Source: Amoebophrya sp. A120 (lineage: Eukaryota > Protista > Dinoflagellata). From it: a DNA stretch of 64,000 bases. This document shows, piece by piece, positions 23,901 through 55,353 of this stretch (positions are counted from its first letter, which is position 1; every line of letters starts with the position of its first letter). The translations under genes and the position numbers were made by a program. The stretch spans positions 11,138,634-11,202,633 of the forward strand of contig CAJINV010000002.1 in assembly GCA_905178155.1 (NCBI GenBank), given 5' to 3'. Under the pieces are notes generated by a model. The model had not been told where the DNA came from and searched no databases. It was given only the letters and a program-made list of their open reading frames with translations.

Positions 23901-25182
23901 CGCCCCCGGCAATGTCGGGCTCCTCGTCTTCCATTCCAAAGGCGTCTACTGCCTCGCGACCACCACCTGCGCCGATAATCGAGAGCATTTCGGCTGTCGG
24001 AGTTGGCACGCTACCTACCACACCGTCGGCCGCCCCAGCAGCTTCAAGCGCTGTACCTACCGATGGGACTCGTTGTGTGCAGCAAGGCGTGCCCTCCGCC
24101 GTGATTGACGCAGGCGCGGCCCGCACTGCAGTTTCGCTTTCGCCAGTGCTGTCTGCAAGCGGCCCGAAGCCACTTGCGCCGGTTGGAACTCCGGGGGCGC
24201 GTGTCGGGCACGGAAGTTCACGTGGTGTAGCCAGTGTCTCTGGGCAATCACCTGCGCCACCTGGGACAATGTCATCGATAAAAGGTTGCACCAGCAGTGG
24301 AAATGGTTGTGTCGCTGAAAAACGAGGACCCGCTGCACTTGGATTTTCGCCGCTGCCATCGACGGCCACAGTCACGACCAGCAGCAAACCCGGCGTGCGC
24401 CCCGCGAGTCACTACGGAGCCCCAGACGCTGCAAAGCAGCAACGGTTTCTTCCGCCACAGCACCCGAGGAAACGCCGCAAGGTCTGCATGCGTTTGCCGA
24501 CGATTCCCACCCGCGCCGAGCTGGACACGGTTCTCTGGAAGGCGCTCGAAAACGCGCGTCTCAACAGCCTGCGCACCACTGGTGCAGGGCCTGCGCTTGG
24601 TCTTGCAGCAGGAACCAGCAACGTGGCAGGTGGAGGCTCTGGAAATCTTGCAGCGCCGACCGTTCACAACAGGGTGGGTGGGAAGAGCAGCGGCAGCGGT
24701 GCAGGGCATGGTAGGGGGATCCGTTTTTCTACAAAAACGGAGGTGCGCTTCCACGACGACGACTGGCCTCCGTACGACTCATTTTGTTTCTCTTTCTCTT
24801 TGTTTCCTTAAAATGCATATAGAAAAAAGCAACAGATTCAGATTATTTTTGAGTTACCGGCAGGCACTAGATGAAATTTTTGAGTTTACCGGCAGTGCTA
24901 TTTCGTCCACCGTGATGATATTTTGATGTTTCATCTTCCAGATTGGTGCAGCTGCCTGTCATGATCCACCACTTCATCATTGACTATGGCTCTTCAATGT
25001 CATCTACAATCTTACAACGAACTACCTACAGGGACAAATTTGTGCTCCAGACGGGCATCGGGAGTAAAGAGTTTGATGGACAAAGTCAACACCGTGCGCT
25101 ACACAACTCCGAACCAAAGCGGGTCCTCGACCAGCGGGCATTGTTTCAGCTGGCCATCAGCATGAGTGTCAAACGAAGCTGA
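14918..25182 (+). CDS. Giant Ser/Thr/Ala/Pro-rich, probably disordered protein (>3,300 aa); start uncertain
   Basis: Uninterrupted 3297-codon ORF. A GT-AG intron at 24772-24941 joins it in frame to ORF 24943-25182. No recognisable domain apart from short charged helices and C-terminal GIRFSTKTEVRF. Confidence 0.7.
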
Positions 25183-27412: not shown

Positions 27413-30400
27413 GTGGACAGCACCAACGCAGCGTCCAATGTCATCTCGACCGGCGAATCCGAAGTCAGGCAAGAACGTGCGTCCTCGGCAACTGCAAAAC
27501 GCGTTGCATCGCGGTCGTCCACTTCCGTCGCTTCGAGCCTGCTACAGGAGGAGGCCAGTCCCCTGCTACAAACTTTGACGGTCGCTGGATTGTTCAGCGA
27601 AGCACTCGGCTGCCGCGCAGATTTGGACGCTGACGATTGCAATCGCCGGACTCGAGCGCAGCTCCCGTCCGTCTGTCGTGCTTTTTCCCGGATGGACAAA
27701 AAGGTGTGCGACCAGCTCCTTCCAACAAAGGATGCGTTCTTTGGTGCGGAAGCAGGAGGTCGTCTACTTGAAGAGTTGGTGCATAAACATCGTTTCGAAA
27801 GTAATACGGATCATCTTGATCAAGTCCAACTTGTACGTGCTACTCTGTGCCGCATGCTGCCGAGTATTCCTTGCAGTTGCTGGAAATCGCTGTTGCGTCG
27901 CGAAAGAGGTGTTGCGTTTTCCTCGCGGTCGCCTTTCCGACAGCAGTTCGTGGAAGATCAGCTGACACGAGAGCAGGGTGAAGCTCTAGACGCACGAGAT
28001 CGAGATCGAGATGAAAGCTCTCACGGCCACGAGGCAGGAGCGTCCACGTCGATGCTGAGTGTTGGTACTGACTTGTTGGCACCACAGGCAGGAGCACAGC
28101 ACTCAGCTGCAAACCGGGGCAACACAATAAACGGCACCGCTTCATCTGGTTTGGGGTTCTTGCAAGAAGGGGAAAGCGGAACGGCCAAAGGAGCAGGAGG
28201 AAGCGGAAACGTTGTGGCGTCCTCTTCTAGTAGTCGCAGCGGTAGGAGCGCAGCACCGGCTCTAACGACTTTCCGTCGCTACTGTCGGTATCACGATCGA
28301 AGTGGGCGCTTCGCAGACACGTCCTGTGGCTTCTTCGTCGACCTGTTCATTGCGACCGAGAGCGAGGAAGAAAAATCATTTCGCCGAAATATTAAAAACA
28401 AAAACGAAACGATGACACCCCAATCTGTCGCAGTGCTACTGGCACACCTGAACGCGCATAGACGAAACCTGTTGCGACAGCACGAGGAGACTGGGTGCTG
28501 TGTCGGGAAAGACACCAACCACCAGCGCTATCGTGTGGCCCGACAGGTACTGGACGATTCCTGTCCACCAGGTAGGACTGCGGACGATGGAGCAGCAGAA
28601 AGTGGCCGCGGTTTTCCCGCTAGTGCCCGTAGTACCAGCAACGCAGCTGGTGTCCCACGCAGTCCGCACAACATCAACAGAGAACGACCGAGCAGGAATA
28701 CTGAAGACCGGAGCACAGAGCTAGATGTAGAAGGCGATCGCTTCTCTTCGCTTACCCTCTGCGGCACGAGGGAGGAAGCACGACAGAGGTTCTTTACAGA
28801 TATCGAAAAGAAAAATCCCCCCTCCCCATATCAAAACGGAATTTCTGATGCTGGATTTGTGTACACAAATCAGCTTTGTATTGCAGGAAGGCACTGCGGC
28901 CAGATCCCCATGCTAGGTAGGGGCGTTTGGGTCTAGTTGTTCAGCATTGCAAACGGCTCCCCTTCAGGCCCGACAGCATGACAAATCGCCACCATGCTAG
29001 GATGGAAGCTTCTGCCCTTGTCTTCTGGCAAGGCACATGTCTGTGATTTGTGACCTGAAATCAGCAACGCAAATTTTCGGAAGCATACCTTTTCCATATG
29101 GGGAGGGGGAGTTTTTCCTTTCGATAACAGATTCCTGTTGTTCGAAGTTGTTGAAGAAAGAACTCCTCGCGCTTGAACATGTTCCTGTTTCTGGAAATCT
29201 TCGAAACGTACCTCTTACGCCTTCACCTTCTCGGCTGCAACCACATCGCCGGGCTTTGCGGAGGTCGGGAGAGTCAAATGCAAATTATGGTGGTCCTCCA
29301 CCTTGCAAGAGAAAGAGGAAAGGGACAAAAAGACAAACAGTAGGGGCCGTAGATGCACATGCACTTGAGTGGGATGCTGCAGAAGCGCTCGGGCATCAAA
29401 AGCAGCATCGGAGCGACGTGAATCCTGGTGGCCCATGCAGCTCTCCCTTCCATGCAGTTAGTGTGCGCCGCGCCAACAAAGATAAAGAACATGATGAACA
29501 TGAGAAATCCAAAAACTCCTCGTACGACTTCCGGCCGTTGCAGAAGTCGCACGACATGCCAGAGAAATCATCATCCCTGCGACGTATTTTCAGTCGAAGG
29601 CCGGTGTGGGTGGCAGGAGCAAGCAGTGGCTCGAGTGATCCACCAACTGCCGTCCATATTCTAGACGGCAGTGTCAGTGCCGCCCATGACTCTAGACGAC
29701 GTGCTGCAGGTAGTTCTCTGGATTCTGGGCAGGGAGATGAAAACTTCATCTACGCGGCGGGTGCAAAAAGTACTGCAAGCGAAAAAGAGGTTCTTCGCGC
29801 GTGGTGTGTCGAATTTCTGTCCGAGTCTGCAATTTTGAAAATGGCGCCGTGTGGGCGTTCTTCTGTGGATGAAGATGAATGGATTCCCATTTTGGAAAAA
29901 ACGCTTTCTGATGGGAGCCTGGAGCGTTTGTGGCCTACCGACGCGGAAGATGTCACGTCGCCATTTTTACGTGTCGACGTGCGGGACGTCCTCGACGAGG
30001 GAGGAGAGTTTCAGGACGAGGATGGGACTTTCGCAACCGAAACCATCGAAGCAGAAGTGGAAGATGCTGTTGCTGGTGGCCCGTCCTCGCGAGCGATTAG
30101 TGATGTTGATGGCGTCCACGGGTCAGGAAGTCATTTTTTATTTGCCCTGCGAGACTCGACCTCGAGCAATCCCCTGCTTTCGTGGATTCTGGCTTTCCGT
30201 GAAATGTCAACAGAGCACTTCGTGAGACTGATGGTGCGAATCGGCGGCCTTCTCACACAGGCCTGCTGCAGAGCGCTTGACGGTGGAAGCGGTTCGAGTA
30301 GTGTAGCTATGCTTTCTCTAGAAGTACATGGCCGAGGCGATGCAGGAGGTGGAGGAGGAGTACAGCGCTCCGACGCAGTAGATGACCAGGCCGACGATAC

Positions 30401-32690
30401 TAGGCCGCATTCGCATTTCGCCCGATCCCGCGACAGAGTCGATGGAAGCGAGCATTTGCCTGCAGATGCTGGGCGCGCAGACGAAGGGATGAGCACCGAG
30501 GTGGACGAGGAAAGGGCCGATGTGGAGCTGCTCGCGGAGGTCCTTCGCAAGTTGGAACTCGGCAGCTTTATCGCGGCTCCGTGTTCGTCGCCGTTTCTCG
30601 CGCAGGAGGCCTGTCTGCTGGTGAATCGCGAGCGCGACCGGAGCGGCGCGCAGACCCCGATGGAAACTTTCGTCGCAGGCCCCATCTTTGCCCTCGACGA
30701 GCCAACTTGTTCGGTCGGCAGGAGAGGGATGCCAACATCAGCGAACGAATCCTCGTGCAAAACAACTACAAGAAGAGCAGGTAGCGGAGATAATCGAAGG
30801 CGACAAGTCCTCGCCAACATTGACCTCAACGAGAGCGACGCTTTTTTTCACTTCGATGGGAGGCGAGACGAGGACTCTACAAGCGAAAGCGCAACGACAA
30901 CGTCAGAGGATGTTTTCTCTTCCGACTCGGAATCAAGTGCCGGCGGTCTCAGTTCAGAATCCGGTGAATTCAGAAGTTCACCAGAAGAAAATGGAGCAAG
31001 AAGGAACGCGCTCACTTCCCCACAGCCGAAGCGATTGCTTCACCTAAATCGCCAGAAGCCTTGGTCGAAGGCGTTCCAGCGTCAACGAGCGGAGCAGCGC
31101 CACCAAGCTCGCTTGCGTCTAGAGACCGAGTTGAGAGTACCTCCTGCCCGGCCCCACGGCCTTGCCCGTGAGGTGGAAGCAGAATCTGAATCCGCAGACA
31201 TCGAACGAGGTCGCGGCTCTGCAAGAACACGACGTCGTCTTCGACCATCATCCTCTGTCGCGGAGCTGGACTCGTTTTTTGGCACAGTGCGGTGGCTCGA
31301 CACGCCACCCGCTTGCGGTTCGGAGACCATACACGTACTTTTGAAACAACTGAACAAGAAGAGTAGACGTAAACGGCGCACTCGGACGAACAGGAACAAA
31401 AATTATAAGGCCGCCGGCGCCTTTGGCAGCGAAAGCGAAACAGGCGAGGGAAGCGGAAGCCGCGAAACCGCATCTGCAGATTGTCCTCGTCCACACTGCA
31501 CTGCATTTGCATGCAACGCACTCGGCGGAGAAGGACAGGTCCAAGAACAACCTGAATCGGAATCCTACGAGAAACAACTGAAAAGCCTGCGCTCGCGGTT
31601 TGCGGACGCGACAACGCGCCGCACGCGCACGCGCGGGAGTTACAACACGGTTGCGATTCTACAGCAATGCTTTCCCTTCGAGTTGCGCCGAGGGAACAGG
31701 TACTGGAAAGAAGGTCAGCTGGAGATGTATAATGCCGAGCGATCAAATTGTCCTGTCGCCAACTCGAATTCCACCCCGCAACTGGACGTGGACGGACATG
31801 ATAGCGCTTGCGCTGCCAAAGTGCTACAAAAATCTATGATCGAAAACGAAAACAAAAAGAAGGAGCAACAGGAAGAAACCGATCGCAACGGATTGCGGAG
31901 AGAAAACCTGGATGAGCTCGCTCACGACTTTGACACTGTTTTGGCAAAGGCGTTGAACCACCAGCCCAGCAGCTATGTGCGATGCATGCTGCCGGGATGC
32001 TCGGCCTGCTTTTCCAGCTACGAAAAAGTGCGAAAACACATGGAGACCTGCTGCACCGACCGCCACTGCAATCCCGAGGAAATCTACCGTCTCCGCGTGG
32101 CCGACACTACCGTGAAAATGCAGGATGGTCATATAACTCCTCCTGGTTCTACTGCCAGTGTGCATCGCGGGACGGGTGGCGCTGCTGCACCTCAGGATCA
32201 AACTCAAATTCGCCCCCGGGAGAATTCCGAGACGAGGACCTCGGCGTCATTATCTTGTGCAGCTGTTACATCACCTACTCAATCTCATCCCATCTTAAAA
32301 CGCGGCAGACAGAGCAGGGAAAAGCATCAAAGTGTGCGGCGTTGGCCGCCTGTTTGTACACAGGCCTGCAGCAAGATTGCAAATGTGCTTCGGCGGCAGC
32401 ATCTTCTGGAACCTTCGTTGACCTCCGGCGCAGAAGATGTAGGCGAAGAACAGGGAGATAATTACGCTTGTCCGGTTCCCGGGTGTCTGGCGGCGTTTCC
32501 CACTCGCGACGCGACACTTTCACACTCAAAAGATTGTATCTTTTTGGCAGGACGAGGTGGAGGCCCTCCCGGATTGCCAGCAAAAGGTGTTCCTCTGCTG
32601 TTGCGCTTTGTCTTTCGGGATGACGAGGAAATCACTGAAGCTCGGAGGTCTCTGATGCTTCGTAGTTGCACCTCGGATCGGAAGATGTAA
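27413..32690 (+). CDS. Large low-complexity protein with two C2HC/C2H2-like zinc fingers; two ORFs joined by a non-canonical intron; 5' end unresolved
   Basis: Removing 331 nt (28801-29131) joins ORF 27413 to ORF 29037 as ...RFFTD-SCCSKLL...; fingers CMLPGCSACFSSYEKVRKHMETC and CPVPGCLAAFPTRDATLSHSKDC. Confidence 0.7.
28801..29126. mobile_element. Introner-like TIR element (non-canonical intron), TSD ACAGA
   Basis: ACAGA|TATCGAAAAG...CTTTCGATA|ACAGA; TIRs match at 28/31; frame restored on removal. Confidence 0.9.
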
Positions 32691-34229
32691 GGACGACTAC
32701 TTCTACTTGATTTTGATATCCCTGGCTTTTGTTCTTCCGTTTTTTTTCTTTATTTTAGATCTTGATATCGGAGCTTTTCATCGTTTTCCTTCATAAACAA
32801 AATCAAAAAGCAGGCGACGGCCAAGATGGTAGTTGATTGCATCTCCTGTTGAATCGTGTCACCTTTTCCTTTCGCCAAGTGCCGCATGGCGCATGCACAC
32901 CGAAAGCACCAAACACGCAAGTAGAGGTGTTATTCAGGTATACTATAATGTACGATCCCGCTTTTTTGATATACTCATCACATCTACTAGAGCTGTCTCG
33001 TAGTGCTCGCCGGTTTGTTGTTGGGGCTTTATTGAGTTTTGAAGCACATAAAGATATGCGTATGCGTTGAGTTGTCTCACCACTGAGTGTCTGACTAAAG
33101 ACAAAGATCAATATCAAGGAGCCAAGCATTGGATCCTTTGTTTCTCTGTTTGCCACAGGAACCTTGTTTCAGCCGCATTTTTGGTTCGTTATCGGCCAGG
33201 TCTTTGAAGACGATTTATAGAAGATAATACAACGAGAGTAAAGACGAGAAAGCAAAACCAAAAGAAACTCAAAAGTTGAAAAAAAAGTTGAATATGGGAA
33301 ATTGGAATTGCGTACACGGGGCTGCGGCTTGTGCAGCAGTTTTAGCTTCCAAACCGTTTGTCTTTCGGTTGACATGTCGAAGATTGTGAAAATGATCGCT
33401 AGTAATTAGTGTTCCACCAGCTGCAGGTGGATGATGTGCCGCTGGCTCCCTTCCTGTTCGAAACGTGGCTAGACCAAGTACAACCATCAAAAGATTCATT
33501 GGCCGTTCAGCCTAGGGTATGTTGTTGGCGACAAATAACAGCTTCCGAGAGAACGATTCGAGGTCAGGAGCATTCCACCTTCTTCTATCAGGGGGGGCGG
33601 ACAAGGTCATCGTTAGCCGCCTCTACTAGCATATAGTACGCGTGGTCAAGTTTTAGCTCATGAATAGCTCCGGCTGCACTCCTAAAGTTCTGGAACGCCA
33701 CCCTCGCAGCCAAGCCAAGCCAAGGCTTCTTATTTCCTGATTCTCCTGCTTTCGTCTTGTCATCATCTATTACTATTTCCCCTTCGTTTTGCCGTCTAGT
33801 TTGTTCGTTGTGCTTGTGTGTTAGCACCAAATGGCGTCAAAAAGTTGTATGGCCAGATGAAGAAGAAATGACTGTCTTTGAATTTCTTGCTGTTATGCCC
33901 CATATTATTGACAATCCCTCTCACAACAATCAAAGGACAACATGAAGATGTGTATATACAGTATTGTATACTAAGTAGCCTGGAGTATTGTCACTGGAGT
34001 AGTCCTGGTCCTGCAGATGGGGGAGGGAGATTGCTTGCCGCAACTGTGAAAATACCGTGGAGCAAGAACGAATCTTCTGCTTTGCCGTGCTAGGTCTCAC
34101 ACACACGCCACCGCTCGTCGAGAGCTAGGGCTAGGGGCGGTCTAAGTAGGTAGAAGACTCCGAATTTTTGGCAAGAAAGACCGAAAAGAGATTCGGACTT
34201 CTACGTGCATCGGCATCGGGACTCACGAT

Positions 34230-37200
34230 ATGGACCTCCTGGACGACCTCTATGGTCGCGCAGGTGCGACCGGTGGCGCCGCGGCTGCTGATCACGATGA
34301 CTACAACCCATATTTAGACCACAACGATAACCCCTATGCGGGGGGTGGAGCCGCAGCTGCCCTGCCACGATACGACGAGAACCCGCTTCCGGCCTCAAAT
34401 CCATACCAGCAGCAAGGAGACGCGCTCGACGCAAATTATGGCTCCACGGCGCTACCGGATTACATGACCGGTGACGGTCACGCTGGCGGACACCACCCGG
34501 GCCAGGATACAGCCCCTGGCCACCATCTGGCCAACGACAACGTGCTCGAAGCCATCCAGAGTCACCGCATCACCTCTTCTGCTTCCTCGCCCAGCGCCGC
34601 CGCCGCGGCGGCTCGGCCACCACCGGCAGCCAATTCCATAGAGGAAACGCCGATTCAGCCGCGGGCGCCGGCCGCAATCACGATTCCGTTCACATCGAAC
34701 ACGAACAGCGGTTATGGAGGTAGCTCCTCGTCAACGGCGAACCTAAACCCTAAACCCAACGCGGACTCGACGAAGTCGTCCAGCGGGCCGAGCAGCAGCA
34801 CCGCCACCAGCGGTAAAAACGTGGTGAAGCGACCGTTTTTAAAGAGAGGCGCACGAAACCCTGTGAGCACCGAGAAGGATTTTTTGTCAAAAGCCTCCAC
34901 CCAGCGCGAAGAAAAGACGCCCGGCAAGCAGCGTCCGCCCGCAGCGAACGTCACGCCCGTGCGCTCGGCGCCCAATGATGGCACGCGAGACAGCAGTCGT
35001 CGAAGCAACGCCGTCGCGTCGGATCGCGATTTATTTGAAACCGCTTCAACTTCGCGAGACGCCGACGCTGGTGGGGGAGGTCCTTCCACAACTGGAAGTG
35101 TCGGAACTAGGAACCGCTCGAGTGGTTCGAACGCAAATGCAACACTGTCGGGTAAGAAGTCAAATTGTTTGCATTGCATCGGTTCGTTGTTTGAGGACGT
35201 GGCACTAGTGATGAGATGTAAGTAGTGCCATGATCATGAAGAAGATGACTGCAATTTCAATGATGCAAACCGACAGCCCCACGAGAGACCGCAAAAACGC
35301 TAGCGAGCAAAAAGTTTTTTGCCGAGCGGTACGGAAACAACAAGAAGCCGCAGCCCGGGGGCCTGAAGCTGGATTCGGCGGAGCTAGGAGGCGAGTCGTC
35401 GTCGGCCAGCGAAGGGGGAAACCAATACTCCTCAATTCGAATCGTCGACCGTGAGGCCCATGCTTCCGAACTTCCGGATCCGGTTCAGCTCTTTTTTGGA
35501 CGACATCTTGTCCTTTGTATAGTACTTATACTTACAACGGATCATGGCATGACGTCACAGAATAGAAAGTGCGAATTCTCATAAATATGAGTGACAAGAA
35601 AATTAAGATTATGGACAAGTGCGAGCAATTACAATGTCGGCAGATAAAGCCACTGCGAGCAATTGATTGACAATCATCTAAAAGTAGCATAATACCCAAC
35701 AGGCTCAGAGTGACCTTCCTTCGGTGGAAGAGCAGGACGGCGAGTTCGATGCCGAGGAAGATCTTCGAGGCGATTTTGACGAAGATGACGAACCGCCCGT
35801 GTCCTCATTTGTGAAAAAGCACTTCTACAGCAAAAACAAACCCCCAGGGGCGCATCAAAAGCCGAGTGGCAAGGGCGCGGCGACATCTGCTTCTTCAACC
35901 TCGGGAGTATACTCGAATGCCGCGACCCTTTCTGGAGCTGCCCTGGGCGTTTCCGCGTCTTCTGTCTCACCGGGGGCAGACCACGGCTTCGAAGACCACG
36001 TAGTCAACTACGTGGTCGAGAAGAAGCAAGGCGGCGCTGCCGGTAGTGCGCTGGCGGCCGCCGCTGCGTTCGAGAATGAAGTCAACGCCTCCTCCGCCGC
36101 GGCCGACACGCAAACGCGGGAGGACTTAGCGCGTAAGCTGAAGATGCTGGACGCGCAGATCGATCGGTAACAAGAAATGACAAACCGTACATAATTATCG
36201 ATCTCGCTATGAACATCAATATGAAAGTTCCTTAAAGATGAGGCAGGAGATGATGGCTGCGACAAGCTGAGAGCTCTTATTGGGTGCATGATTTGGTAAA
36301 TTTCAGGTTCAAGCGCGAGAACGAGCAATGCAAGAAGCTGCGAATGGACCGGGAGCACGCGCTCAGGCAGGTTGAGCACGAGCGCAAGAAGCTTCGCGAA
36401 GAGGTCGAGCAAGAGTATGGCCTTCTCAGTTTTTCACATCACTCAAAAGCTACACTTTTCCGCTCGTGTAATTCATTGTCATGCATACGCAGTACCAGTA
36501 CGACCTCCAAGGGGAGCAAACTGTGAGCAAACCCAAAGCCGCGAATGACAGACGTACAGCAACAGCTGCCCAGGGGAACGCTTGCGCTTGCATCTATTAA
36601 TTTAGCAAGAGTTCGTCCAGGGAGACACAGCGCCACGATGCTCAACATTCGCTTTCACGCCTTGCTTCCTTTGCAGGATATACAAAAAAAGTTTGGCAGT
36701 ACTTGGGGCGTGTGACGGCTCGGAAGGTCATAAAGAGCGCGCTGCCATGGTGGCAGAAATTGATGAAGAACGAGAAAAGATGCGCAAGGAAAGGAATCGC
36801 ATCCATCAGGAAAGTACGCATCGCAAAAGTTGTGTCACAAGAAGAACAACACGAACACCAGCGAGCGCTGCATGTTGAGGACAAGAACTTTCCATAAGTT
36901 CTAGGGTACGCACTACACAACCAAGACCATGTTCTCTATCGGGAACGAAATCGACATATTGAATTCCGAACCATAAATGTTAATTGTAGGTGAGCATAGA
37001 GAACAAGTACAAGAATTCCAGGATCCCGCGTCTCGTGTGTACATCGTGAAATTAAAGTGAAATTCTTGCGCAACACTTTTTCACTGGATAAGGAGGGAGA
37101 AGCACCGACAGCAGGTCCAAAGCAGCAAAGCGGATGTGGCAACCAACGAGCAACTGACGAAACAATATGGAGAGTCAGTTATGAGGGTTCTTTCATCACA

Positions 37201-39260
37201 GAAGACACACCAAAGCGCTCAAAGGATTTGGAGTTCTTTAGACGAAAAAGGAAAAGAAAAAACGTGTACGCAAAGGAGCGACTGGCTTCATCTCTCTGTC
37301 TCTTTCAAGAAAACTCTGCAGCAGGCAGTGCGTATTTCTTCTGTTTTGAAAAAATCTTGCTTGCACCTCGCATATGCAACTCAAGGACCTGAAAGAGGAA
37401 ACATCGCAGAAAGAAGCAAGGTAGATGTGGTTACTCGGCAGCGACACCTCATGTGTGGCTGTTGCTTGTGATTCTCTTTTTCCGATGGAATCATGCTGCT
37501 GTATATGTATTGACAAGAGGATGATCATAGTGATTTTCAGGGAACCAGCATGACGCAGCGACAATTGGTAGTGTGCAACTTCTTTGATAAGTAAATTATT
37601 TGTCTTCTTGAAGTCAATCTTCCCTCTTAGGTTCCGCCGCACAATTGAGCGACTCCAGCGACAAAACGACGAACTTCTGAAGAAGAATTCCGAGCTTCAG
37701 GATGACTTGAGCTGGATGAATCGGCAAGCGGAAAAATACGCCGCCAACGCTGGTGGTGGAGGCAGCTCTCCTCCCGAGCGAACTGTACAGTTTGACTTGA
37801 TCATCGTAATTGAGATCTTTTCAAGATGAAAATAAACACAATTCGATTTTCGTGATACAGATATCCCAAAGCAAAGAAAGCAAAAAAGGCCTCGACAATC
37901 TATGTTCCAATCATTCAAAGGTCACGCCTGCGTCCGCTGGAGCGCCAGCAGCCGCGTCCGCGGCCACTGTAGCGCAAAACAGCCCAGCCTTGAGTTCTAC
38001 CGCTGGTCACATGCCTGTTTCGCTGGACCACCAGTCTCACCACGGAGGGACCCCGCAACTCGTGCCAAGCAGCGCGAACAGTACCCCAATGCATCACCAG
38101 CCGGCGCTCACTGCGTCGGCGCAGCACCAGCAGCACAGAACGCTGTCCGCCAACGCGCTGACCCGCCCGGCGCCGCTGCTGGGCTCCAGCGGTATTTTCC
38201 AGCCCGGGATGCGAACCAGCGGCACGAGCGGGCTGGTGCAGCACCAACCAAGCGCAGGACCCGCGAGTGGTGCGGTGGGCAGTCTCGGCCTCAGTGTTGG
38301 CTTAAACTCCTCCTCTACCGCCGCGCTTTTGAATCCCAGTGCCGGGGTCATGCAGATTGGTGGACCAGCATCTACAAAAGTGGGCGCGACCATGACAAGT
38401 TCCTCGGCGGCCACGTCGGGCTCTTTTCACATGCTGAACACCCGCGCAAATCATGCAGTAGCGACGGCTTCTTCAAACTTCGCTCCGCTTCCGTCAAACG
38501 GGACGACGCCTTCTGCATCGAAGACACTGAGCGCGGGCCTGAAGCCAACGGCGGCGGGAGCAAATGCCGGGGAGATGGGCATAAGTCAGGACCTAGCTAC
38601 AGAAATCCTGAAATCGCTACCGGTAATCGACGATAACGTGAAAGATCCCCACGAAATACCCACCGAAAAGATATCTCCAGACGGCCGCGTTGAGCGTATG
38701 TTCCGAGACGGGCGGCGGGAAATTCAGTATTGTTAGTTTCTGATGAAAATGAAATTTGAAATTATTTTTGGGATTCAGATAGGCATAGGAGAAGGAGGAC
38801 CACAAAATTTACATCTTCTGCTTTGGTTTACGCTGATGTCAGTTGTTTTTTTTTGTGAATCATGTTCATGTTCATGATCATGTCCCGCCTGCGCACGAGC
38901 ACGACACCGCTGTGAGGGCCATCCATTTGAAGAAATATACACAGGTTCACGAACGGGCTGAAGAAGGTTTTGTGGCCCGACGCGCGGTGCACTGTTCTAT
39001 TCACGAACGGGGACACGAAGCATTGTCTCGCAGACGGTACCGTGATTTACCGGTACTCCGAGACCGCCGCAACGCAAACCACCTTTTCCACCGGCATCGA
39101 AGTCTTTCAATTCGCCTCCGGGCAAATCGAGAGGCACTTTCCCACCGGGGAGAAAGAAATCAAGTTCGCAAACGGCACGACGAAAAAAATATACGCCGAC
39201 CTGCGCGAAGAAATCCGCTTCCCCGACGGAGTGGTGAAACACGTTGCGCCGAAGAAGTAG
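34230..39260 (+). CDS. CENPJ: SAS-4 / CENPJ (CPAP) centriole protein, about 10 exons
   Basis: N-terminal KRPFLKRG motif (34827-34850), central coiled coil (IDRFKRENE...KEARFRRTIERL) and C-terminal TCP10/G-box repeats (FTNGDTK...DGTVIYRY...QTTFSTGIEVFQFASGQIERHFPTGEKEIKFANGT). Exons approx 34230-35151, 35277-35482, 35703-36166, 36307-36415, 36738-36814, 37096-37165, 37380-37420, 37631-37784, 37921-38726, 38945-39260. Confidence 0.88.
36416..36732. mobile_element. Introner-like TIR element in SAS-4, TSD AAGAG
   Basis: AAGAG|TATGGCCTTC...GAAGGTCATA|AAGAG; removing 322 nt gives EQE-RAAMVAE; adjacent GT/AG pairs (321 or 323 nt) are out of frame. Confidence 0.85.
36815..37090. mobile_element. Introner-like TIR element in SAS-4, degenerate TSD GAAAG/AGGAG
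   Basis: Left end TACGCATCGCAAAAGTTGTGTCACAAGAA vs right end (reverse complement) TATCCAGTGAAAAAGTGTTGCGCAAGAA; removing 281 nt gives HQE-REKHRQQ. Confidence 0.72.
37166..37374. mobile_element. Introner-like TIR element in SAS-4, degenerate TSD AACAA/TGCAA
   Basis: TATGGAGAG...CTCGCATA with inverted TTTCA..ACAGAAGA block; removing 214 nt gives LTKQ-LKDLKEETSQKEAR. Confidence 0.75.
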
Positions 39261-40799
39261 TAGAATGGGAGCCTTTGCCTTTCTTCTCTGGCTGGTGCAG
39301 GCAAGTCCTCATTTTCTTCGACATCTGTTGCAGGTCAGCAGTTGTTTCCGGTGCCGCACAACCGCGACGGCGAATTGTGGTCTGCACAACTTCGACACTA
39401 TTCCGATTGCTCCTGCTACAGATGCTGATATAGCTACTCTGCGCAGTCGGAAGTATTTTGCTCACCCTTAGAAAATCAATACTCCACTCGAATCCCATCT
39501 GCGATTTACTTCAGGGTTTTTGTGCGGGTGAATTTGAATTTAATTTTGTGTGCATGTGCTATAATCTACATCTATTTTTGGCACAACGGAACGTGGACAT
39601 GATTCCGTCGCTCTTTTTTGTAAAAAGGGAAGTTCATGTACATGTTGCTGATCATGCAGACTAGATGTAGACGATGAAATTGATCATGAACTTTGGCGTT
39701 GCGCCTTGGTGCAGTCGCCCTCGCAGCCCAGTGTTTCAATACTCCCGCTCCCCGTGTTTCAACACAGTGGGTCAAAGTACCCCGGGATGAAAGGTCCATG
39801 CAAGGGAGGTTTTGGTATAAGCATGGAATTGGAAACCAGAATTTCATGATGTACCAGAAAACGTAAACGACTGATTTAAATATGCGTTCGAAAGCGATTT
39901 GTGGATTTATTTTTGCAATGTAAAGCTTGAAATAGCATTACAGCATGTGATGAAAAAGGACAGAAATTTATTATCTATGCTTCGATTACGATGCATTGTG
40001 CATCAGCATCTGCTTTGATACGCTGCGCTTCAGTGCCGCATTGTGGAAAAGCGCGGTATTACACGGTGACGCCATCCTTCTGTTTTCGGCATGTATCCAG
40101 ATGCAGGCGCTCCCTCCACTCCTACCGCTACCCATGCTAGTATTTCGTACTAACCACAAAGAAATGAACGTGACGTGGCTTCTGCAGGACCCTACTATCT
40201 ATGTCTATCACAGTATGGAGAGTGATCTTTCGAGCGCGAGAGCCGATACTGATAGATAGATACTTCAATAACGTGTGAGATGTTGTATGTGGTGCAGAGA
40301 AATCTAGTATGTGGTGAAGTACTTTTTGACCTTTTTCTTGAACCGGCCTGCCAGAATTAAAGATTTGCTTCGTAGTTTTCCATTTGCTCCTTCCTGTGAT
40401 GGTACTTTGTTTCCCGGGTAAAGCATGGCTTTACAAAGTAGTTGTGAGAGAATTACGAAGTGGGCTCCTTGTTCGTCGCAGCCAGAAGCAAGTCGAAGAC
40501 CACGGAAGTGGGCTCCAGGTCCTCCATCTCAATTATGAGGTGATTGTCATTCGTTGCAGCTACACGAACACGACCACTGGAACCGCCAATAAATAAATGT
40601 ATGCCCGGGCAGTAGCAGGCTAGCGAGCCTGTGAGTCTAGGCTGAGGCTGGACGGGCGATATTTTATACATGTCCGAGCCTCGCCCTTTTCCGGTAGCCA
40701 GGACAAGATGTTTGTGAGGGTGAACCTCTTCCCGGTCTGGGTTGAAGTTTATTTCCTTTCTCTCTTATCCTCAGGGAGTAACGCCCCTGCCGATGGTAG

Positions 40800-41265
40800 T
40801 AAGTCTGGTCCATCCGCCTCAGGAAAGTGTCTTTTATCCGCTTGTCGGAAAGTCTGGTCCATCCGCCTCAGGAAAGTTTTTTCATCCGCTTGTCGGAAAG
40901 TCTGGTCCATCCGCCTCAGGAAAGTGTTTTTATCCGCTTGTCGGAAAGTCTGGTCTCATCCGCTTGGCGGAAAGTTTGGCGATCCGATTGGCGGAAAGTT
41001 TGGTCTCATCCGCTTGTCGGAAAGTTTGGTCTCATCCGCTTTGCGGAGAGTTTGGTTATCCGCTTGTCGGAAAGTCTGGTCAAATCCGCTTTGCGGGAAG
41101 TTTGGTTTATCCGCTTGGCGGAAAGTTTGGTCGCATCCGCATGTCGGAAAGTCTGGTCTCATTCCGCTTGGCGGAAAGTTTGATCTCATCCGCTCGGCGG
41201 AAAGTTTAGCCCAATCCGCTTTGCGGACAGTTTTGGGCATCTCTGGTTTATCCGTTGTGCGGACA
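40800..41265. repeat. Tandem minisatellite, ~24-26-bp unit ATCCGCTTG(T/G)CGGAAAGT(C/T)TGGT with hairpin core
   Basis: Roughly 19 adjacent imperfect copies of TCCGC...CGGAAAGT. Confidence 0.9.
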
Positions 41266-41859
41266 ATGTTGGCAGCCCTGATTGTATTCTCGTTGACGTT
41301 GGCGATAGCAGCGAGAGTACGGAATCATGCGGTCTCGCCTTGCTTTGGGAAGGAGGGTCGTTTGGCACTGGCGGTTCGAACCCGTTACCCTTGCGAACTT
41401 TTTCCGTCCCAAGCCAAGGCCCTTGGCTTTCTTTGGTGGTTTGTCCTTCGATCCTCTGATCCCATTGCAACGCGAGGCCGCAAGGCTATCGGTTTTCGTC
41501 CGCTCGAAGCTTTCCACTTCGGGTACATGCCACTGGTCGGTCCGTCGTCATCGCTACGCCTTCGTCTATGGGGCGCACCGGTTTCCCAAATTCATCGTCT
41601 GGCCGCAGGCGTCGCGCCGGGTTCTTTGGGCTGCTTCGGCGTACCGGCCTCCGCCGGTGGGGTAGGTGCTTCCAGGGCGCCTCCTCGTGCGACGCAGTGG
41701 GAGATGCTCCCATCGAGCGATCATCCATAGGGTGATCCTTCCGCGGTGACTGAATAAAATAAGCATGGTCTGACAGCACGGTTTGTGAGCAAAACCAAAA
41801 GCAAGAGCCAAACTCGTGATCGTGATCGATACTGAGGAAAAAAAACGACAAATCTTTCC

Positions 41860-44800
41860 ATGGGATCATCCAAGGTGACGAAGCATCCGCTTGAGGCGGC
41901 CGCCAGCCTGCAGGATTTGAAGAAGAAGAGCAAGTTGCTCAGTATCCGGTTTCAGGCCCCAGAGCTCGATCTAGATGTCGGCGTTGCGGTGCGCTTAGGA
42001 ACCTCGACGGGCAGCAGCCTGGGGAGTAGCTGTAGCTCCTCGTCGGAGAATTTTACCGCTGTCCCCTGCATGGCGGCAGATCTGATAACTAATGCCACGA
42101 ATACACTACACGAGTATTTCCCCAGTCACTCTTCTGCCCACGGGGAGGACCGAGTGACCGTGTACGCGAAAAGGCCGCACCGGAGCGAGCTGCGGGTCCG
42201 GGCGAGGGGCAGCTTTCAAGACGGGGGGAGCTCCAGCTCCACTTTTCCCGCTACGAGGTTGTACGACGAGGCAGGCGACGAAGAGGAGGAGGACGGGGCA
42301 GGCGCAGAAACCTATGCCCGGTCCGTCCGGCACTTGATTTCAAAACTTGAAGAGTCCCGGAAAGTTGCCGCTCTCAAAGACGCGTAATACAAACATTGAA
42401 GTGCATTCATTTTCCGTTGTGATGATCATTTGGCTCATCATCGTTCTTGTTGTGCGTCAGATCCTATGTAGAATCGGCTGATATGATTATAAACGCGGAA
42501 AGTCAAACACAAAATGAAAAAGAAACACAGTTGTGCCGTATCGCGAAATATCAAATTCTAGGTATGTGGAGGTCGTGGCCGAGAAGTACACCGAGGCAGT
42601 GAAAAAGTTGACCAATTTTCGCCAAGAAGCGCTAAAAGAAATCGCAAATTTACGCAACCAGCTCGCGATGGCCCGGAAAGATGGGACGACGTACCAGCAC
42701 AGAAGCGTAACCTTTCTTGACGACGCCGAGATCGAAAAGTATCGGTTTCTAGTTTTTGTCTACTTGATGTTACGTTTTTCTATTTGATTGTCGTACTGCA
42801 GAGATCGTGCTAGCCTCAGCCGCAGACCAAGTGTCACTGTGTATCGTTGCTTGTATTGAGGTTGAACTTCTGCTCCGGTTGGCGTCTGGCTCGCGTTAAC
42901 AGTACCAAGTGCATAACGTACTTCTGCATCGTTCTACTCTTTTCGCTTGCCGCTTATTTGTTGCAACAAAAATCGATCAGTAAGTACGGAGTCCCGGGCT
43001 GGCAGACCATTGTTGACCAAGCAATCGCACGCTGGGAGGGCGAGCAGTCTATGATACCGAAAAAAGGTGGTTGCACAAAAAACGCGTTTCATTTATTTTT
43101 GTTTGAAAGTAGGGCTGGTGAACCTAAGCAACCGAGGACCTCTACTACGCAGCAAGAGTTAAACTTGTAGTTTTTGTAGATCGACGGTATTAATCAATAG
43201 AAATGTAGCACAAGGGATTGTTACTGCTTGTGATTGTAGTGGTCAAGTATGAAATACCAATGCAAATGCGTACTGAACAGTACTAGAGTAAGTTGGAGTG
43301 GCAAGTCGAATTGATCGAAAGGCTACATCACCATTAATATGTCGCGCGACGTTACTAGTACTAGTTTGCACCCACCGACCGTTTTATTGCATACTGGTAA
43401 AGGAGTTTGCGTTCTCGAAGCTGTTGAAACCACAGACGGAAAACGAGAAGAAACTCCAATTGGTCACCAGCACAACAACTGGCACGGGACCCGCGCCCCC
43501 TCCCGCAAGAATTAGCAATGACAAGGACTTTCACGTGCATCGCAATCCGAATATGATTCTGGATTCCGCCACAGAAGTGCAAAAGGTGCAGGAAATGCAG
43601 CAGGGAGAGTACTTCGAGTACCACAAAATCGTGTCAAAGCCCGAGCCGGAGCCGCCGCTCCCGCTGTTTTTGCCGTCGCCCAAGCGCAACCGCGCAAACG
43701 CGATCTGCGACCTGGAATCGCTGGAAAAGCAGCGGAGGCATTCGGTGCACGCCGCGGATCTGCCGAAGCCGAGCGCTTTCGGGGACATGCGCGTCGAAGA
43801 GACGGAAGGAGACGTAGAAAAGAAGAAAACGGAAACAACGCGGACGAGCGGACTCAACCTAGTGTCGTCGACGACAACGACGTATCAGCGTTCTTTTTTT
43901 TATTTGTGACTTGTTTTCATTTTTTTGTCACTGACTCATGCTCATCACTGCTCTTCCTTTGTTTTTGAGATACGGGCGGCTGAAGAGCCTCAAGCGATCC
44001 AACAGATTGAGTTAATGAATGAAGAAGCCTGAGCGAGATATGTTAATGTTTGATGAACCTAATTTGAAAACTGAATTACTTGAAACATCAGGCAGCCATC
44101 CACGCGCGCGACGAGTGGGGCGCGCACTCCTGTCAGGCACACCACGTTTCTTATGGCGAGAAAAATTATACAATTTAGCATTGCTTTTTCTCCATCGCGA
44201 GCCGCCACTCTTGCTTCGATATGCATTTGGATTTGCAACACCCTCGTCTTGTCAGATCCTTGTCTCCAGCTGGTCATTTATTTCACTGCAAGTAGTTCTT
44301 GTAAATTAAAATTTGAGACGAGTGGCATCAAAAACCGTAGCAGAGATCGCATGCTGAAAATTACGGTGATACTGTTTACCGGTGGGAGCCCGCCGCGGTC
44401 GCCAGCTTCAAGTGTCGCCTCTGTCCCGCTGTTCGAACGGATGGTAAAGAAAATGATCGTAGCTATAGTGAGGTTATCCAGTGCAAAAGTATCGTACTCG
44501 TATAAATCCTCCCCGATTTTGATCCATGATAAAACTTAGAAGCTGGTGGGAAGTTGTTGAGAAGTAGGTGGATAAGTGGGTGAGAAGTCCGCGGCGAAGT
44601 TGGTTTGGAAGCCGGTGAGAGGTGGCCGGGTGTGTTGGCGTCGCCATCGCCTCGGCCGAGTGGCGTGGCACGTCACTCCACCGCCGCGAGTTCTACCGCC
44701 TTCGCTGCCTGCAGCTGCAGCTGCAAGGGCTGGAAGGAGAGTTTGCGCTGCAGATAAATAGACAGACGCCCAGTGTCATTGTTTCCATTCATCTGCGGCG

Positions 44801-48399: not shown

Positions 48400-51300
48400 A
48401 TGAAGCCAACCAAATCGAGTCCCCCTGGACTGCCGTCGGAGCCTGCTTCTTCATCGTCGCGTGGAGCTGCCTTGATGTCCGCGCTGGACATTATGCATTC
48501 CGACGGAAAAGAACATAGCCGGCACGATGAGAAGTTGTCCTTGTCTCGTAGTGCGACTAGCGCTAGCGCTGCAACCACAAGCAAGCCGACCACAGCCCAA
48601 CTGGAGCGCGAAATTTCTGCGAACCAAGAGAGCCTGTATCGCGCACGGATTGCGGGGCCGCTGCGAGCCGACCTTCGTGTGAAGGAGGCGCAGCTAAAGC
48701 ACGTTACTAAGCAGCTGCAAAATGTGCTGAAGGAGCATGAGGATCTCGTTTTCGAGAAAAAGTTCCTGCATGAAAAGTACCACCTGCAGGGGGCTGAGGC
48801 TCGGGAGGCCATTACGAGCTTGCAGCGCAAGAACAAAAGACTCACAGAGCGGGCAAACGGAACAAGTAGCGGTGGAGTTGTGGGCGGACCGGCTGCCGCT
48901 CCGAGTGGAGCAAGAACCACTCCAGACGTCGCTCTTGGTGTTAGCCCACCCTCACCAAATTCTCCAGGAAGGCGGGGTCGAGTCACGTTTCCCACCGCCT
49001 CCGGCCGCGGACCCGCGGGAGCTCGTGGTCTGGGGTCGCACACGGCGAGATCTGCGTCTTTTTCCACGACTACGACGACCACCCGACCAACAGGTCAGGC
49101 ATCTTCATCTCGAGTAAATTTCCGACCCCGCAGCGCGTCCCACGGAGGGACGACCGCTCTAGGAGCTGCAGGCTATAACGATGCCGACAACTTCCTCGAC
49201 GACGATTATGACACTTTTGACGAGGAACAAGCCAATTACGCCGGCACGCAAGAACTACATTTCGGAGGCCAGCATTCGCAACTTCAGGCGGCGACCACGA
49301 GCCCCGGAAGAAGTGGGGGATCCGGATCCTTTCCTGCCGGAAAAGCGGTGCTCAACACGGGCCAGCGGCAGAAACCGAACTGGAGCCGCACCCATCTGCT
49401 GAACCAGCAGCAGATGGCGAAGATGCAGGATGAGTTCAAACAGCTTCTGGCGACGCACGAGCACTACGTCTCGATTTTCACGGATTTGCTGCGGAAAAAG
49501 GATTTTTTGGTGGACAAGATCCAGACGGATTCCTCTCAAGCGCTGCAGCGGATCCAGGAGGACGAAAACGCAAAGCGGATGCGGCTGGAACGGATTTTAC
49601 GGAGCTGTCAGGATTGAAATTAACAAAGTTGAAAGAATTTGTGATGCGTAAAATCTATACCAGTTGGACACACAGTTTCCAATCGGCAAATGACAAATTT
49701 TCCTGGCCTCTGAAGCAAGTCTGTCATGCTGTTTAGGACAAGATGGCTCAGCCATTGGCTGCTCCCTGTCATGCTAGTCAGCTGCCCAATTCTTGACCCT
49801 TGTCAGCACTAGAATCCGCCTCCCTTGCGCCTTCTGCAATAGAGTCAGTCTTTGTGTCGCATTTTATGCATGACAAAGCGTATATTTGTGTTTCAACTTT
49901 GTCGATTTCGAACCTGACACATCCATAGATTTTGGAAGAGGAAAAGCGGCTCATCGAGGCCGAGTGCAGCGCCTTTCTGGCCCAGCGGGAAGTGGAGTGG
50001 GAGGAGGAAAAAAAGCAGATCGACGTGCGCGTCAAGGCTTGGGAGAATGAGGTTGCCCAACTGAAAAAGAAGCTGCAGAACGACCGCGAAGCGCACGTGC
50101 TGGAGGTAGAGCACTGGAAACGGAAACACAGCTACTACAAAGACCGGTTTGGAGAGGCCGAACAGGAGCTGAAAGAACAACTGGACACGGCAAAAAAAGC
50201 GGAGCAGATCGCCGCATCCAAAACCGCGGGCATTGAGGTATAAGTACTTTTCATCTTCATGGTCATCCGATTTCAACAACGACGTTCATACTCAAAGCAC
50301 AGTCGATAGAAGGGTGATATGCACGTTCTTCGTTCTGCATTATTTCATCACGCCGCCTGGAAAAGTTGTGTGCGTTCTTCATTGGATGTGGAGATTGTGA
50401 GCTGAGTTTTTTCTTCCTCGTTTCGCAGGCGAAGTGTCACCAGATCGAGGAGAAGTTACGGCGTGAGCACGGCGAGAAGTTGACTGAAGCCGTGGCGAAA
50501 GAGGCGAAGCGCCAGGACTTGCGGCTCGAGAACGCGCTGTCCGCACTGAAGATCGAGCATGAATCCGAAAAGGTCGATCGCCAGGCGCTGATGGACCGGG
50601 ACAAGCAACAGGCGCTCCGGGAGCTGGACCTGGCCAAAAACATGGAAGCGCAGGAACTCTTGCACCAGAAGGAGGAAGCGACGCAAAAAATGCTCACAGA
50701 CAAGGAGCACGAGCTGGCAGCGGCCAAAACGCAAATCAAAAAGGAGTTCGCGGACAACCTGCAGCAGGCACGCAGGGAGTGGGAAGAAAATCGAAGGAAA
50801 GCCGAGGAGGAAGAAAGAAAGAGGTAAAGACGATTCTTTTGCTGATGCTCATACAACATGTCGCGATAGACAACATGGAGTGCCGTTTAGTAGATTCTTT
50901 TGCGAAAGGAAGATAAAGAACGCAAGCGACATCATCATGCAGTTTTATTTTGTACGAGTGAAAAACTTTGATTTTTTCAAGAAAGTAGTTCTCGTTCTTG
51001 TTTGTTGTGGTAGGTCAGAAGAAGTGGCGCGCATGAAGACGCGGGAGCAGCATTTGGCCATCCAGGAACTAACGGCGCACCACGAACTCGCAATGGCGAC
51101 TGCGCATGGAGACTTGATTGAGAAGGCAGAGACAGCTCGCCGGGAAAAAGACGAAGAGGAGCGGAAGCGCCGGGACTTGGAGCGGCAAAAAGAGGAGAGT
51201 GAGTTCACGCTGCAGAAGCAGATCAAGGAACTGCAACGCCGCCTCAATCTGTGGGTCCACGGCTACGCCAGCGTGAAGCACCTCAAGGTAGCGCAAGAAG

Positions 51301-51655: not shown

Positions 51656-52200
51656 GTCACTTTGTCATTGATCAGCTTCATGATGTTAAGTCAAGGAGAT
51701 CCCTCGAAGGCAAAAAATTTAAAGATTTAGGCGGCTCCTGTGTCTCCACATTTTCCACCGTCACTACAGTAAAATTTGGTTCCGCGCAGTGTCGGCAGAG
51801 CAAATCCAAATCTCCCCTTCTGAGAACACGATCTTGATCCTCAACTAAAAACGATCCAGGGATGTGGTAGCGATCACGTCTTTCGTGATGAGAAGTGAAA
51901 TTTTGTCCGACACGAAATCGCCGTTCCATCTTTCTGATTCAAAATTTAGATCCGCTTTTCATCGCTTGCGCAGATCACAAAAACAAGACCAACGAGGACT
52001 CGTGGTGGCGCAAGACGCAAAGCGTGTTTAGGGAACGAAGTAGTCTGATGTTTCAGGATTTCATGGGAAAAAGCATTTCTGTGCTCTGATAAACAGGAAC
52101 TAGCGATTTGCTGTACTTGCACTTTGGTTGCAAGCACTTTGCACTTGGAATTTCTCTTCCTTACTGAGTCGTCGTTCTTTTGCGACAAAAACCTGGCAAG

Positions 52201-55200: not shown

Positions 55201-55353
55201 GAGCCGACCCAGTTCGCTGGTCGCATTCACCGCATGATCAAGCTCGGCCTGTCTTTGGACGATGACGAGGATGAGGCGGATGAGGACTTGCCGCCGCTGG
55301 AGGAGGTCGAGGGAGCCGACGCAGAGGCTTCCAAGATGGAAGAGGTCGATTAA
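52201..55353 (+). CDS. HSP90: Cytosolic heat shock protein 90, 5 exons
   Basis: [68 protein letters not shown] and C-terminal MEEVD. Exons 52201-52477, 52692-53065, 53204-53467, 53950-54525, 54718-55353; all four introns GT-AG. Confidence 0.99.

Follow-up and report, generated by a model that had tools for sequence, protein, structure and literature searches.

Three non-canonical introns in the SAS-4 gene of Amoebophrya sp. A120 and the position at which its RNA is cut to remove them

How does a conserved centriole gene stay readable when three transposon-like inserts interrupt about a kilobase of its coding sequence, and where exactly is the RNA cut when they are taken out? This question is raised by the SAS-4 (CPAP family) gene of the dinoflagellate Amoebophrya sp. 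A120, which lies in a 64,000-nucleotide (nt) stretch of contig CAJINV010000002.1 (assembly GCA_905178155.1, positions 11,138,634 to 11,202,633); we call this whole stretch the window and give all positions within it. The inserts, here called E1, E2 and E3, occupy 36411-37379, which is exactly the distance from the first left to the last right of the short direct repeats that flank them, and they share the gene with six ordinary GT-AG introns (Table 1). Our analysis confirms that E1-E3 are real and are removed exactly from the SAS-4 RNA, the 5' cut falling 0-2 nt before the TAY with which each insert begins and the 3' cut lying 3-5 nt beyond the ATA at its end.

The RNA evidence consists of assembled transcript contigs from two runs of one sample, compared with the window over 33500-40000 together with one DNA run; the two runs were judged to be cDNA because the six GT-AG introns are absent from them. 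A single 4.2-kb contig of uniform depth in each (2/2 runs) spans the gene with all nine joints, of which six are GT-AG and the other three non-canonical. The joints at the inserts are 36410>36733, 36812>37094 and 37162>37377, and the lengths skipped (322, 281 and 214 nt at E1, E2 and E3, respectively) are in every case the element plus 5 nt. No letters stand between the joined pieces (positions 2074-2184 of the contig record, 69 + 42 nt), and the contigs agree with the SAS-4 exons at every letter. The DNA run lacks all nine joints; in it one contig crosses the locus at a flat depth of 43 and no other contig covers the exons. The share of 31-mers predicted for the spliced form is 0.60, and 0.60-0.61 was found in 4/4 presumed RNA runs, the two compared here and two more. 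A preliminary description of this DNA had proposed that the inserts must be removed accurately, that two intron classes coexist in one transcript, and where the junctions should lie, and all of this is borne out: the element plus exactly 5 nt is skipped at 3/3 joints in 2/2 RNA runs, six GT-AG and three non-canonical joints lie on a single contig, and the junctions are those predicted.

The joined exons also encode the expected protein. The open reading frame, which the preliminary description took to be intact through the TCP10 domain, indeed gives 1054 amino acids (aa) with Tcp10_C (PF07202) at 86.2 bits against a Pfam cut-off of 36, and the C-terminal G-box matches CPAP/Sas-4 structures (PDB 4bxp, 4ld1, 4mpz) with E 7e-30. 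Residues 505-630 form a central charged segment with 40-62% E/K/R/Q and zero P or G, and for the putative central coiled coil Tcp10_C and CPAP clusters are among the Atlas leads scoring under 0.9; the N-terminal tubulin-binding PN2-3 domain had 0 matches in the Pfam and PDB searches, and a short basic motif near residue 200 presumably resembles it. Identity to the deposited gene model and the RNA joints are possibly not independent of one another; independent support comes from the orthologue of Amoebophrya A25, to which residues 515-665 align with 110/151 identities and 0 gaps across all three insert junctions. Were an element kept, the protein would end at 603 aa (E1), 613 aa (E2) or 706 aa (E3), each before the Tcp10_C/G-box. 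Of 83 candidates in a protein search with the last exon, 11 proteins were matched, the best being the 1054-aa A120 protein (100% identical) and the next-ranked those of Amoebophrya A25 and AT5, with only one A120 Tcp10_C protein among the 11. A silent locus backed by a second intact copy was thus not found, within the sensitivity of the contig and protein searches, because the RNA contigs match these exons, the DNA run holds no other contig over them, and a single A120 Tcp10_C protein was matched. When metagenomes were searched for the orthologous site without an insert, 81 candidates yielded 1 locus, of which only the last exon is covered. That contig (L001, 1-510) carries a related SAS-4 last exon with 86% identity, and the intron preceding it and A120 intron 9 do not end at the same point of the G-box region.

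Table 1. Features of the SAS-4 locus and further elements of the same build (window positions)
Feature	Position	Strand	Basis
SAS-4/CPAP-family transcription unit (contig extent, not true ends)	33872..39974	+	transcript contigs 33933-39974 (X1) and 33872-39967 (X3)
SAS-4 coding span, 10 exons, 3165 nt, 1054 aa	34230..39260	+	same as deposited A120 protein P0002 (GSA120T00020352001.1)
GT-AG intron 1, 125 nt	35152..35276	+	transcript contigs
GT-AG intron 2, 220 nt	35483..35702	+	transcript contigs
GT-AG intron 3, 140 nt	36167..36306	+	transcript contigs
Left 5-nt direct repeat of E1, AAGAG	36411..36415	+	sequence
E1 non-canonical intron core, 317 nt, TAT..ATA, strong terminal stem	36416..36732	+	RNA joints, folding
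Right direct repeat of E1, AAGAG, 5/5	36733..36737	+	sequence
77-nt exon (cut drawn flush with TAY), ends in E2 left repeat GAAAG (36810-36814)	36738..36814	+	
E2 non-canonical intron core, 276 nt, TAC..ATA, decayed inverted repeat, terminal stem not predicted	36815..37090	+	RNA joints, folding
Right direct repeat of E2, AGGAG, 2/5; differing positions 1-3 lost from mRNA	37091..37095	+	
70-nt exon, ends in E3 left repeat AACAA (37161-37165)	37096..37165	+	
E3 non-canonical intron core, 209 nt, TAT..ATA	37166..37374	+	RNA joints
Right direct repeat of E3, TGCAA, 3/5; differing positions 1-2 lost from mRNA	37375..37379	+	
41-nt exon (42 or 43 nt with cut 1 or 2 nt further left)	37380..37420	+	
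GT-AG intron 7, 210 nt	37421..37630	+	transcript contigs
GT-AG intron 8, 136 nt	37785..37920	+	transcript contigs
GT-AG intron 9, 218 nt, within Tcp10_C/G-box coding region	38727..38944	+	transcript contigs
Last coding exon, bulk of Tcp10_C (G-box) domain	38945..39260	+	Pfam and structure matches
TAY..ATA element, strong terminal repeats, flanks 5/5, interrupts frame	28801-29126	+	
TAY..ATA element, strong terminal repeats, flanks 5/5, interrupts frame	49598-49927	+	
TAY..ATA element, strong terminal repeats, flanks 5/5, interrupts frame	62952-63071	+	
TAY..ATA element, strong terminal repeats, flanks 4/5 (position 1 differs), interrupts frame	63139-63295	+	

The position of the cuts is bounded because the mRNA keeps the left copy of the direct repeat wherever the two copies differ, that is, at all 5 mismatched positions of E2 and E3; the left copy also encodes the A25 residues at both sites. 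Counting a cut flush with TAY as register 5 and one 1 nt before it as register 4, registers 3, 4 and 5 are each compatible with E1, E2 and E3. None of the 13 RNA-compatible registers of the three inserts yields GT-AG, GC-AG or AT-AC ends. In E1 and E2 a GT start is available at register 4 and an AG end at register 5, never both at one register; E3 has GT, GC or a final AG at none of its RNA-compatible registers, and the three share no terminal dinucleotide at any register. At register 4 the inserts would start GTATGG (E1), GTACGC (E2) and ATATGG (E3), and 5/6 canonical donors of SAS-4 start GTA. The border position of the A120 non-canonical introns was left unknown in the original paper (PMC7789003), and we found no paper that fixes the A120 cut register or removal mechanism, subscription papers being largely outside the search. 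In Table S4 of PMC7789003 the nine commonest non-canonical classes of A120 all start NT and the nine of A25 TT, which agrees, weakly, with removal by a relaxed spliceosome. We do not take such published dinucleotide tables to prove register 4, as they likely reflect aligner preference (see below), and we dropped ATA as a branch site, since only E1 fits yUnAy by inspection of the ends.

The mismatches are unevenly spread along the repeat. Among E1-E3 they affect 5/9 of positions 1-3 and 0/6 of positions 4-5 (Fisher p 0.042), and among the seven elements of this build in the window 6/21 and 0/14, respectively (p 0.033; within-element permutation 0.018), so that positions 4-5 are matched in 3/3 SAS-4 elements and 7/7 window elements. 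Any fixed cut leaves one copy of each position intronic and free to drift, and the lasting identity at positions 4-5 therefore suggests constraint. The published pattern, in which the repeat met most often in A120 consists of the four bases adjoining the 5' inverted repeat, found again within two bases of the 3' inverted repeat (PMC7789003), fits this identity, and figures S19-S25 of the same paper may already display the repeat asymmetry. The preliminary description's statement that identity of the target-site duplication is dispensable thus stands for positions 1-3 and fails for positions 4-5.

What kind of insert is removed in this way? E1-E3 fit a miniature inverted-repeat transposable element (MITE), or non-autonomous terminal inverted repeat (TIR) transposon, in being 209-317 nt long with TIRs and a target duplication, and too short for a transposase reading frame; the literature, so far as covered here, is divided on a cognate autonomous transposase of the A120 introners. 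The three inserts with duplications identical at 5/5, 2/5 and 3/5 positions, and the tiny exons they leave, were correctly recognised at the outset, the last exon being 41-43 nt according to cut register; the median A120 exon is 265 nt (PMC7789003 Table 1). We scored end-anchored complementarity against 1000 shuffles per intron with the terminal triplets fixed: the real value was reached by 0 (E1), 1 (E2) and 3 (E3) shuffles per 1000, and for the six GT-AG introns by 19, 1000, 250, 1000, 19 and 339 per 1000. In a blind scan of the window for TAY..RTA, with 181 candidate pairs, E1-E3 (scores 28, 20 and 28) were indistinct from chance pairs, so it is the RNA joints and not the repeats that prove them. 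An exact-repeat search did not report their terminal repeats as such and gave only one internal E3 arm pair. The four further TAY..ATA elements in Table 1, which score 44-60 and are the only ones clear at ≥42 among the 181 pairs, look younger and are candidates from sequence alone. The 3' ATA is constant in 7/7 elements, and the 5' triplet is TAC in 2/7, where a C-A mismatch results; what is recognised at the 3' end may be the motif's sequence and not its pairing.

The predicted terminal stems differ among the inserts. That of E1 (11 base pairs with wobble) forms in every folding context, that of E3 forms for the element alone and not with 30-nt flanks, and the terminal pairs of E2 have a probability of 0.05 or less, with 0 expected pairs in 1-kb context; the TIRs of E2 and E3 are degenerate, yet above shuffles. 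The earlier suggestion that both the TAY/ATA ends and the stem are retained therefore holds for the ends in all three and for the stem in E1, depends on context in E3, and does not extend to E2. The 5' end of E2 pairs with the 3' end of E3 at -25.7, against -22.2 with its own; exon skipping by such cross-pairing was rejected, no skipped form being listed among contigs, which drop rare forms. No internal similarity was found among E1-E3 or with the four other elements of the window, nor any copy of E1-E3 inside the window (best E 0.13), and E1-E3 gave 0 matches in Rfam (E up to 1 in 30000-44000).

The three inserts are crowded into 147 coding nt in the most purine-rich part of the SAS-4 coding sequence. 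This crowding has p 0.006 under uniform placement in one gene chosen post hoc from about 26,000, and a target preference or an exon-enhancer effect is possible.

E1-E3 belong to the published class of A120 non-canonical introns, mixed genes included, and both the class and this gene model are already on record. They lie in an A120 gene, 3/3 of their joints are seen in RNA, and they have no GT-AG register. According to Farhat et al. 2021 (PMC7789003), the introns of this class have a TAT-type start, TIRs and boundary direct repeats of 3-5 nt, average 240 nt, near the lengths of E1-E3, and can share a gene with GT-AG introns. Non-canonical introns make up about 65% of the introns of A120, whose overall density is 1.42 per kb. 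From these rates 2.92 non-canonical introns are expected in the SAS-4 coding sequence and 3 are seen. We find no difference in kind from the class as that paper presents it, only that E1-E3 are decayed and that repeated copies were not seen. The introner definition there fits them in part (TIR of 8-20 nt, direct repeat of 3-5 nt, inverted repeat of TAT plus seven variable bases plus at least 3 A): the direct repeat is 5 nt in E1, 3 in E3 and only 2 in E2, and E1 and E3 start with TAT and lack the A run, whereas E2 starts with TAC and has an A run at that place. The A120 TIR-DNA introner families of Gozashti et al. 2025 (PMC12130899) resemble E1-E3 in their TIRs and mostly non-canonical annotated ends; there family 19 has a 5-nt target-site duplication by manual inspection, and up to tens of introners occur in one A120 gene.

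Other known classes were compared with E1-E3. E1-E3 are not U2-type GT-AG/GC-AG introns, since no register pairs a GT or GC start with an AG end, nor U12-type AT-AC introns, since there is no AT-AC register and the minor small nuclear RNAs (snRNAs) are reported absent in A120 (PMC7789003). The MITE-derived introns of Fritillaria borealis (PMC13326754; PMC11282704) are like them in being removed without GT-AG ends in the presence of a near-complete spliceosome; these, however, keep preferred AG-AC and AG-AT ends, and U1, while E1-E3 have no shared terminal dinucleotide, and the registers of E1-E3 that start AG end AA, AG or GG, so that they are not of the Fritillaria type. The nonconventional introns of Euglena (PMC12501133; PMC11282704) share paired ends, slidable direct repeats, a short 5' and longer 3' spacer and coexisting GT-AG introns with E1-E3; they belong to an unrelated lineage and have CAG near the 5' end and CTG at -8 (PMC12501133), motifs lacking at the ends of E1-E3, which have TAY/ATA instead, and E1-E3 were not assigned to them either.

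How might such introns be removed? We give about even credence to the reading that E1-E3 are A120-class non-canonical introns, likely aged MITE-type insertions, taken out together with one repeat length of 5 nt by a spliceosome with relaxed splice-site rules. A small TIR element would have integrated at a staggered cut of 5 bp and doubled 5 nt of the target, as its anatomy and the literature suggest; the contigs show that RNA processing takes out the element with 5 nt more, which restores the frame, and that the left repeat copy stays wherever the copies differ. Of these first two steps we are very confident. The first bases of the right copy, now intronic, would then drift. The last two repeat bases would likely stay matched because the cut wobbles by 1-2 bases, and matching there gives the same mRNA at every register. 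The weakest step concerns how the ends are recognised: a 5' cut 1 nt before TAY would let the element supply U+2 and A+3 as the GTA donors of this gene do, and the 3' cut would be set by ATA or by the pairing of the ends in place of an AG. A sharper form, which we hold only tentatively, is that the RNA is always cut about 1 base before TAY and about 4 after ATA, with TA replacing U+2/A+3, no terminal G or AG needed, and only the last two duplicated bases kept matched to absorb wobble. A120 is reported to retain 83/89 spliceosomal proteins and the U2, U4, U5 and U6 snRNAs, U1 snRNA not having been found (PMC7789003), and an Amoebophrya with canonical introns has U1 (PMC12005148). The same layout of direct and inverted repeats is also reported in 15% of A120 canonical introns (PMC7789003), and Fritillaria is a precedent for a spliceosome adapting in this way.

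Several points weigh against this reading. All of the RNA evidence is assembled contigs of one sample, whose RNA label is inferred and not on record, and contigs cannot reveal excised products, so no lariat, branch point or intermediate is visible in them. Spliceosome chemistry normally requires matched terminal bases, and E3 has none. Hairpin measurement cannot be the whole removal rule, because the E2 stem is not predicted. The pattern at positions 4-5 amounts to 6 mismatches in 3 elements, one of them lacking an RNA junction, and was noticed post hoc. No repeated copy of E1-E3 at ≥95% identity is present in the DNA run (flat depth, one unbroken contig), so the name introner, used for them in the preliminary description, applies in the sense of the non-canonical intron class and is at most putative in the strict sense of a repeated family. 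Finally, in the available part of the published A120 family tables we summed the 7 families with at least 96 copies (1994 copies) among 21 of 58 rows, leaving out 14 smaller rows: GT+AT starts make up 44.6% and AG+AC ends, in different registers, equally 46.6%. It is because these start and end preferences are equal but in different registers that we take the tables as likely aligner preference.

The strongest competitor, a serious possibility to which we give somewhat less than even credence, is a separate non-spliceosomal machinery that cuts and ligates by reading the TAY/ATA motif pair and the spacer lengths, as has been proposed for Euglena. The lack of any terminal dinucleotide common to E1-E3 is what it would lead one to expect, and the spacers of 0-2 nt (5') and 3-5 nt (3') match the direction of the 3 and 5 nt of Euglena (PMC12501133), in which removal is reported to depend critically on the motif pair and the donor spacer, with some change tolerated in the acceptor spacer; euglenid nonconventional introns leave as circles without lariats (PMC11282704). 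The CAG/CTG motif, however, is missing at the ends of E1-E3. The A120 repeat layout forms a continuum with the 15% of canonical introns that have it, whereas Euglena hybrids are rare (PMC7789003, PMC12501133), and U1 is missing only from the two strains that were invaded, a sign that it is the spliceosome that has changed (PMC7789003, PMC12005148).

Self-splicing by a ribozyme, or removal by the element's own mobility enzyme acting on RNA, would account for precise, sequence-independent removal of a structured insert; we consider it improbable, as E1-E3 and the four other elements have no internal similarity, the three inserts have no common core in 209-317 nt, and there is no Rfam match. A hairpin with a direct repeat is also the classic set-up for reverse-transcriptase skips, and only cDNA-derived contigs were observed, so the joints could be template-switch artefacts over repeat-flanked hairpins in a gene that is broken or silent. 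This is very improbable: all three skips restore the gap-free A25 match, one contig of uniform depth per run holds all nine joints, the E2 overlap is just 2 nt with no predicted stem, and the single A120 Tcp10_C protein among the 11 matches is this one. Least probable of all is that the elements are cut from the DNA in the expressing stage, like the internal eliminated sequences of ciliates, which have TA-bounded ends as E1-E3 have TAY ends, for although a single DNA run was examined, it has 0/9 joints in one locus-spanning contig of flat depth, and here neither TA end survives in the product, which retains a 5-nt repeat where ciliates retain a TA.

The window contains a number of other features. 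Upstream of SAS-4 a short high-copy repeat (33634-33703) reaches a DNA depth of up to about 880 against 43, occurs in other transcript contigs as well, and has no match in Rfam. Downstream a tandem array of 24/48-nt units (40783-41230) lies inside a 368-aa + strand open frame without a Pfam match. Stop-free frames of 3310 aa (14879-24811) and 1229 aa (29001-32690) have no Pfam match at E 0.01. The introns of an HSP90 gene (about 52200-55350) all look GT-AG by inspection, in agreement with reports that core genes have few introners. At the left end, an AT-rich 17-nt tandem repeat (1-1850) adjoins a 769-nt N gap (521-1289).

The SAS-4 locus is thus an ordinary example of a published oddity, and its value is that of a test case. 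The mismatched repeats of E2 and E3 bound a cut position that PMC7789003 left unknown; what is added is this bound and a hint that the final two bases of the duplication count. The 1-kb cassette, in which three non-canonical introns of a conserved gene have a GT-AG intron on either side, should be a convenient substrate for lariat, circle and removal-order assays. If the fixed cut about 1 base before TAY and 4 after ATA proves true, tens of thousands of RNA-supported mismatched-repeat junctions would fix the register genome-wide and would define a form of spliceosomal splicing that needs neither U1 nor AG.

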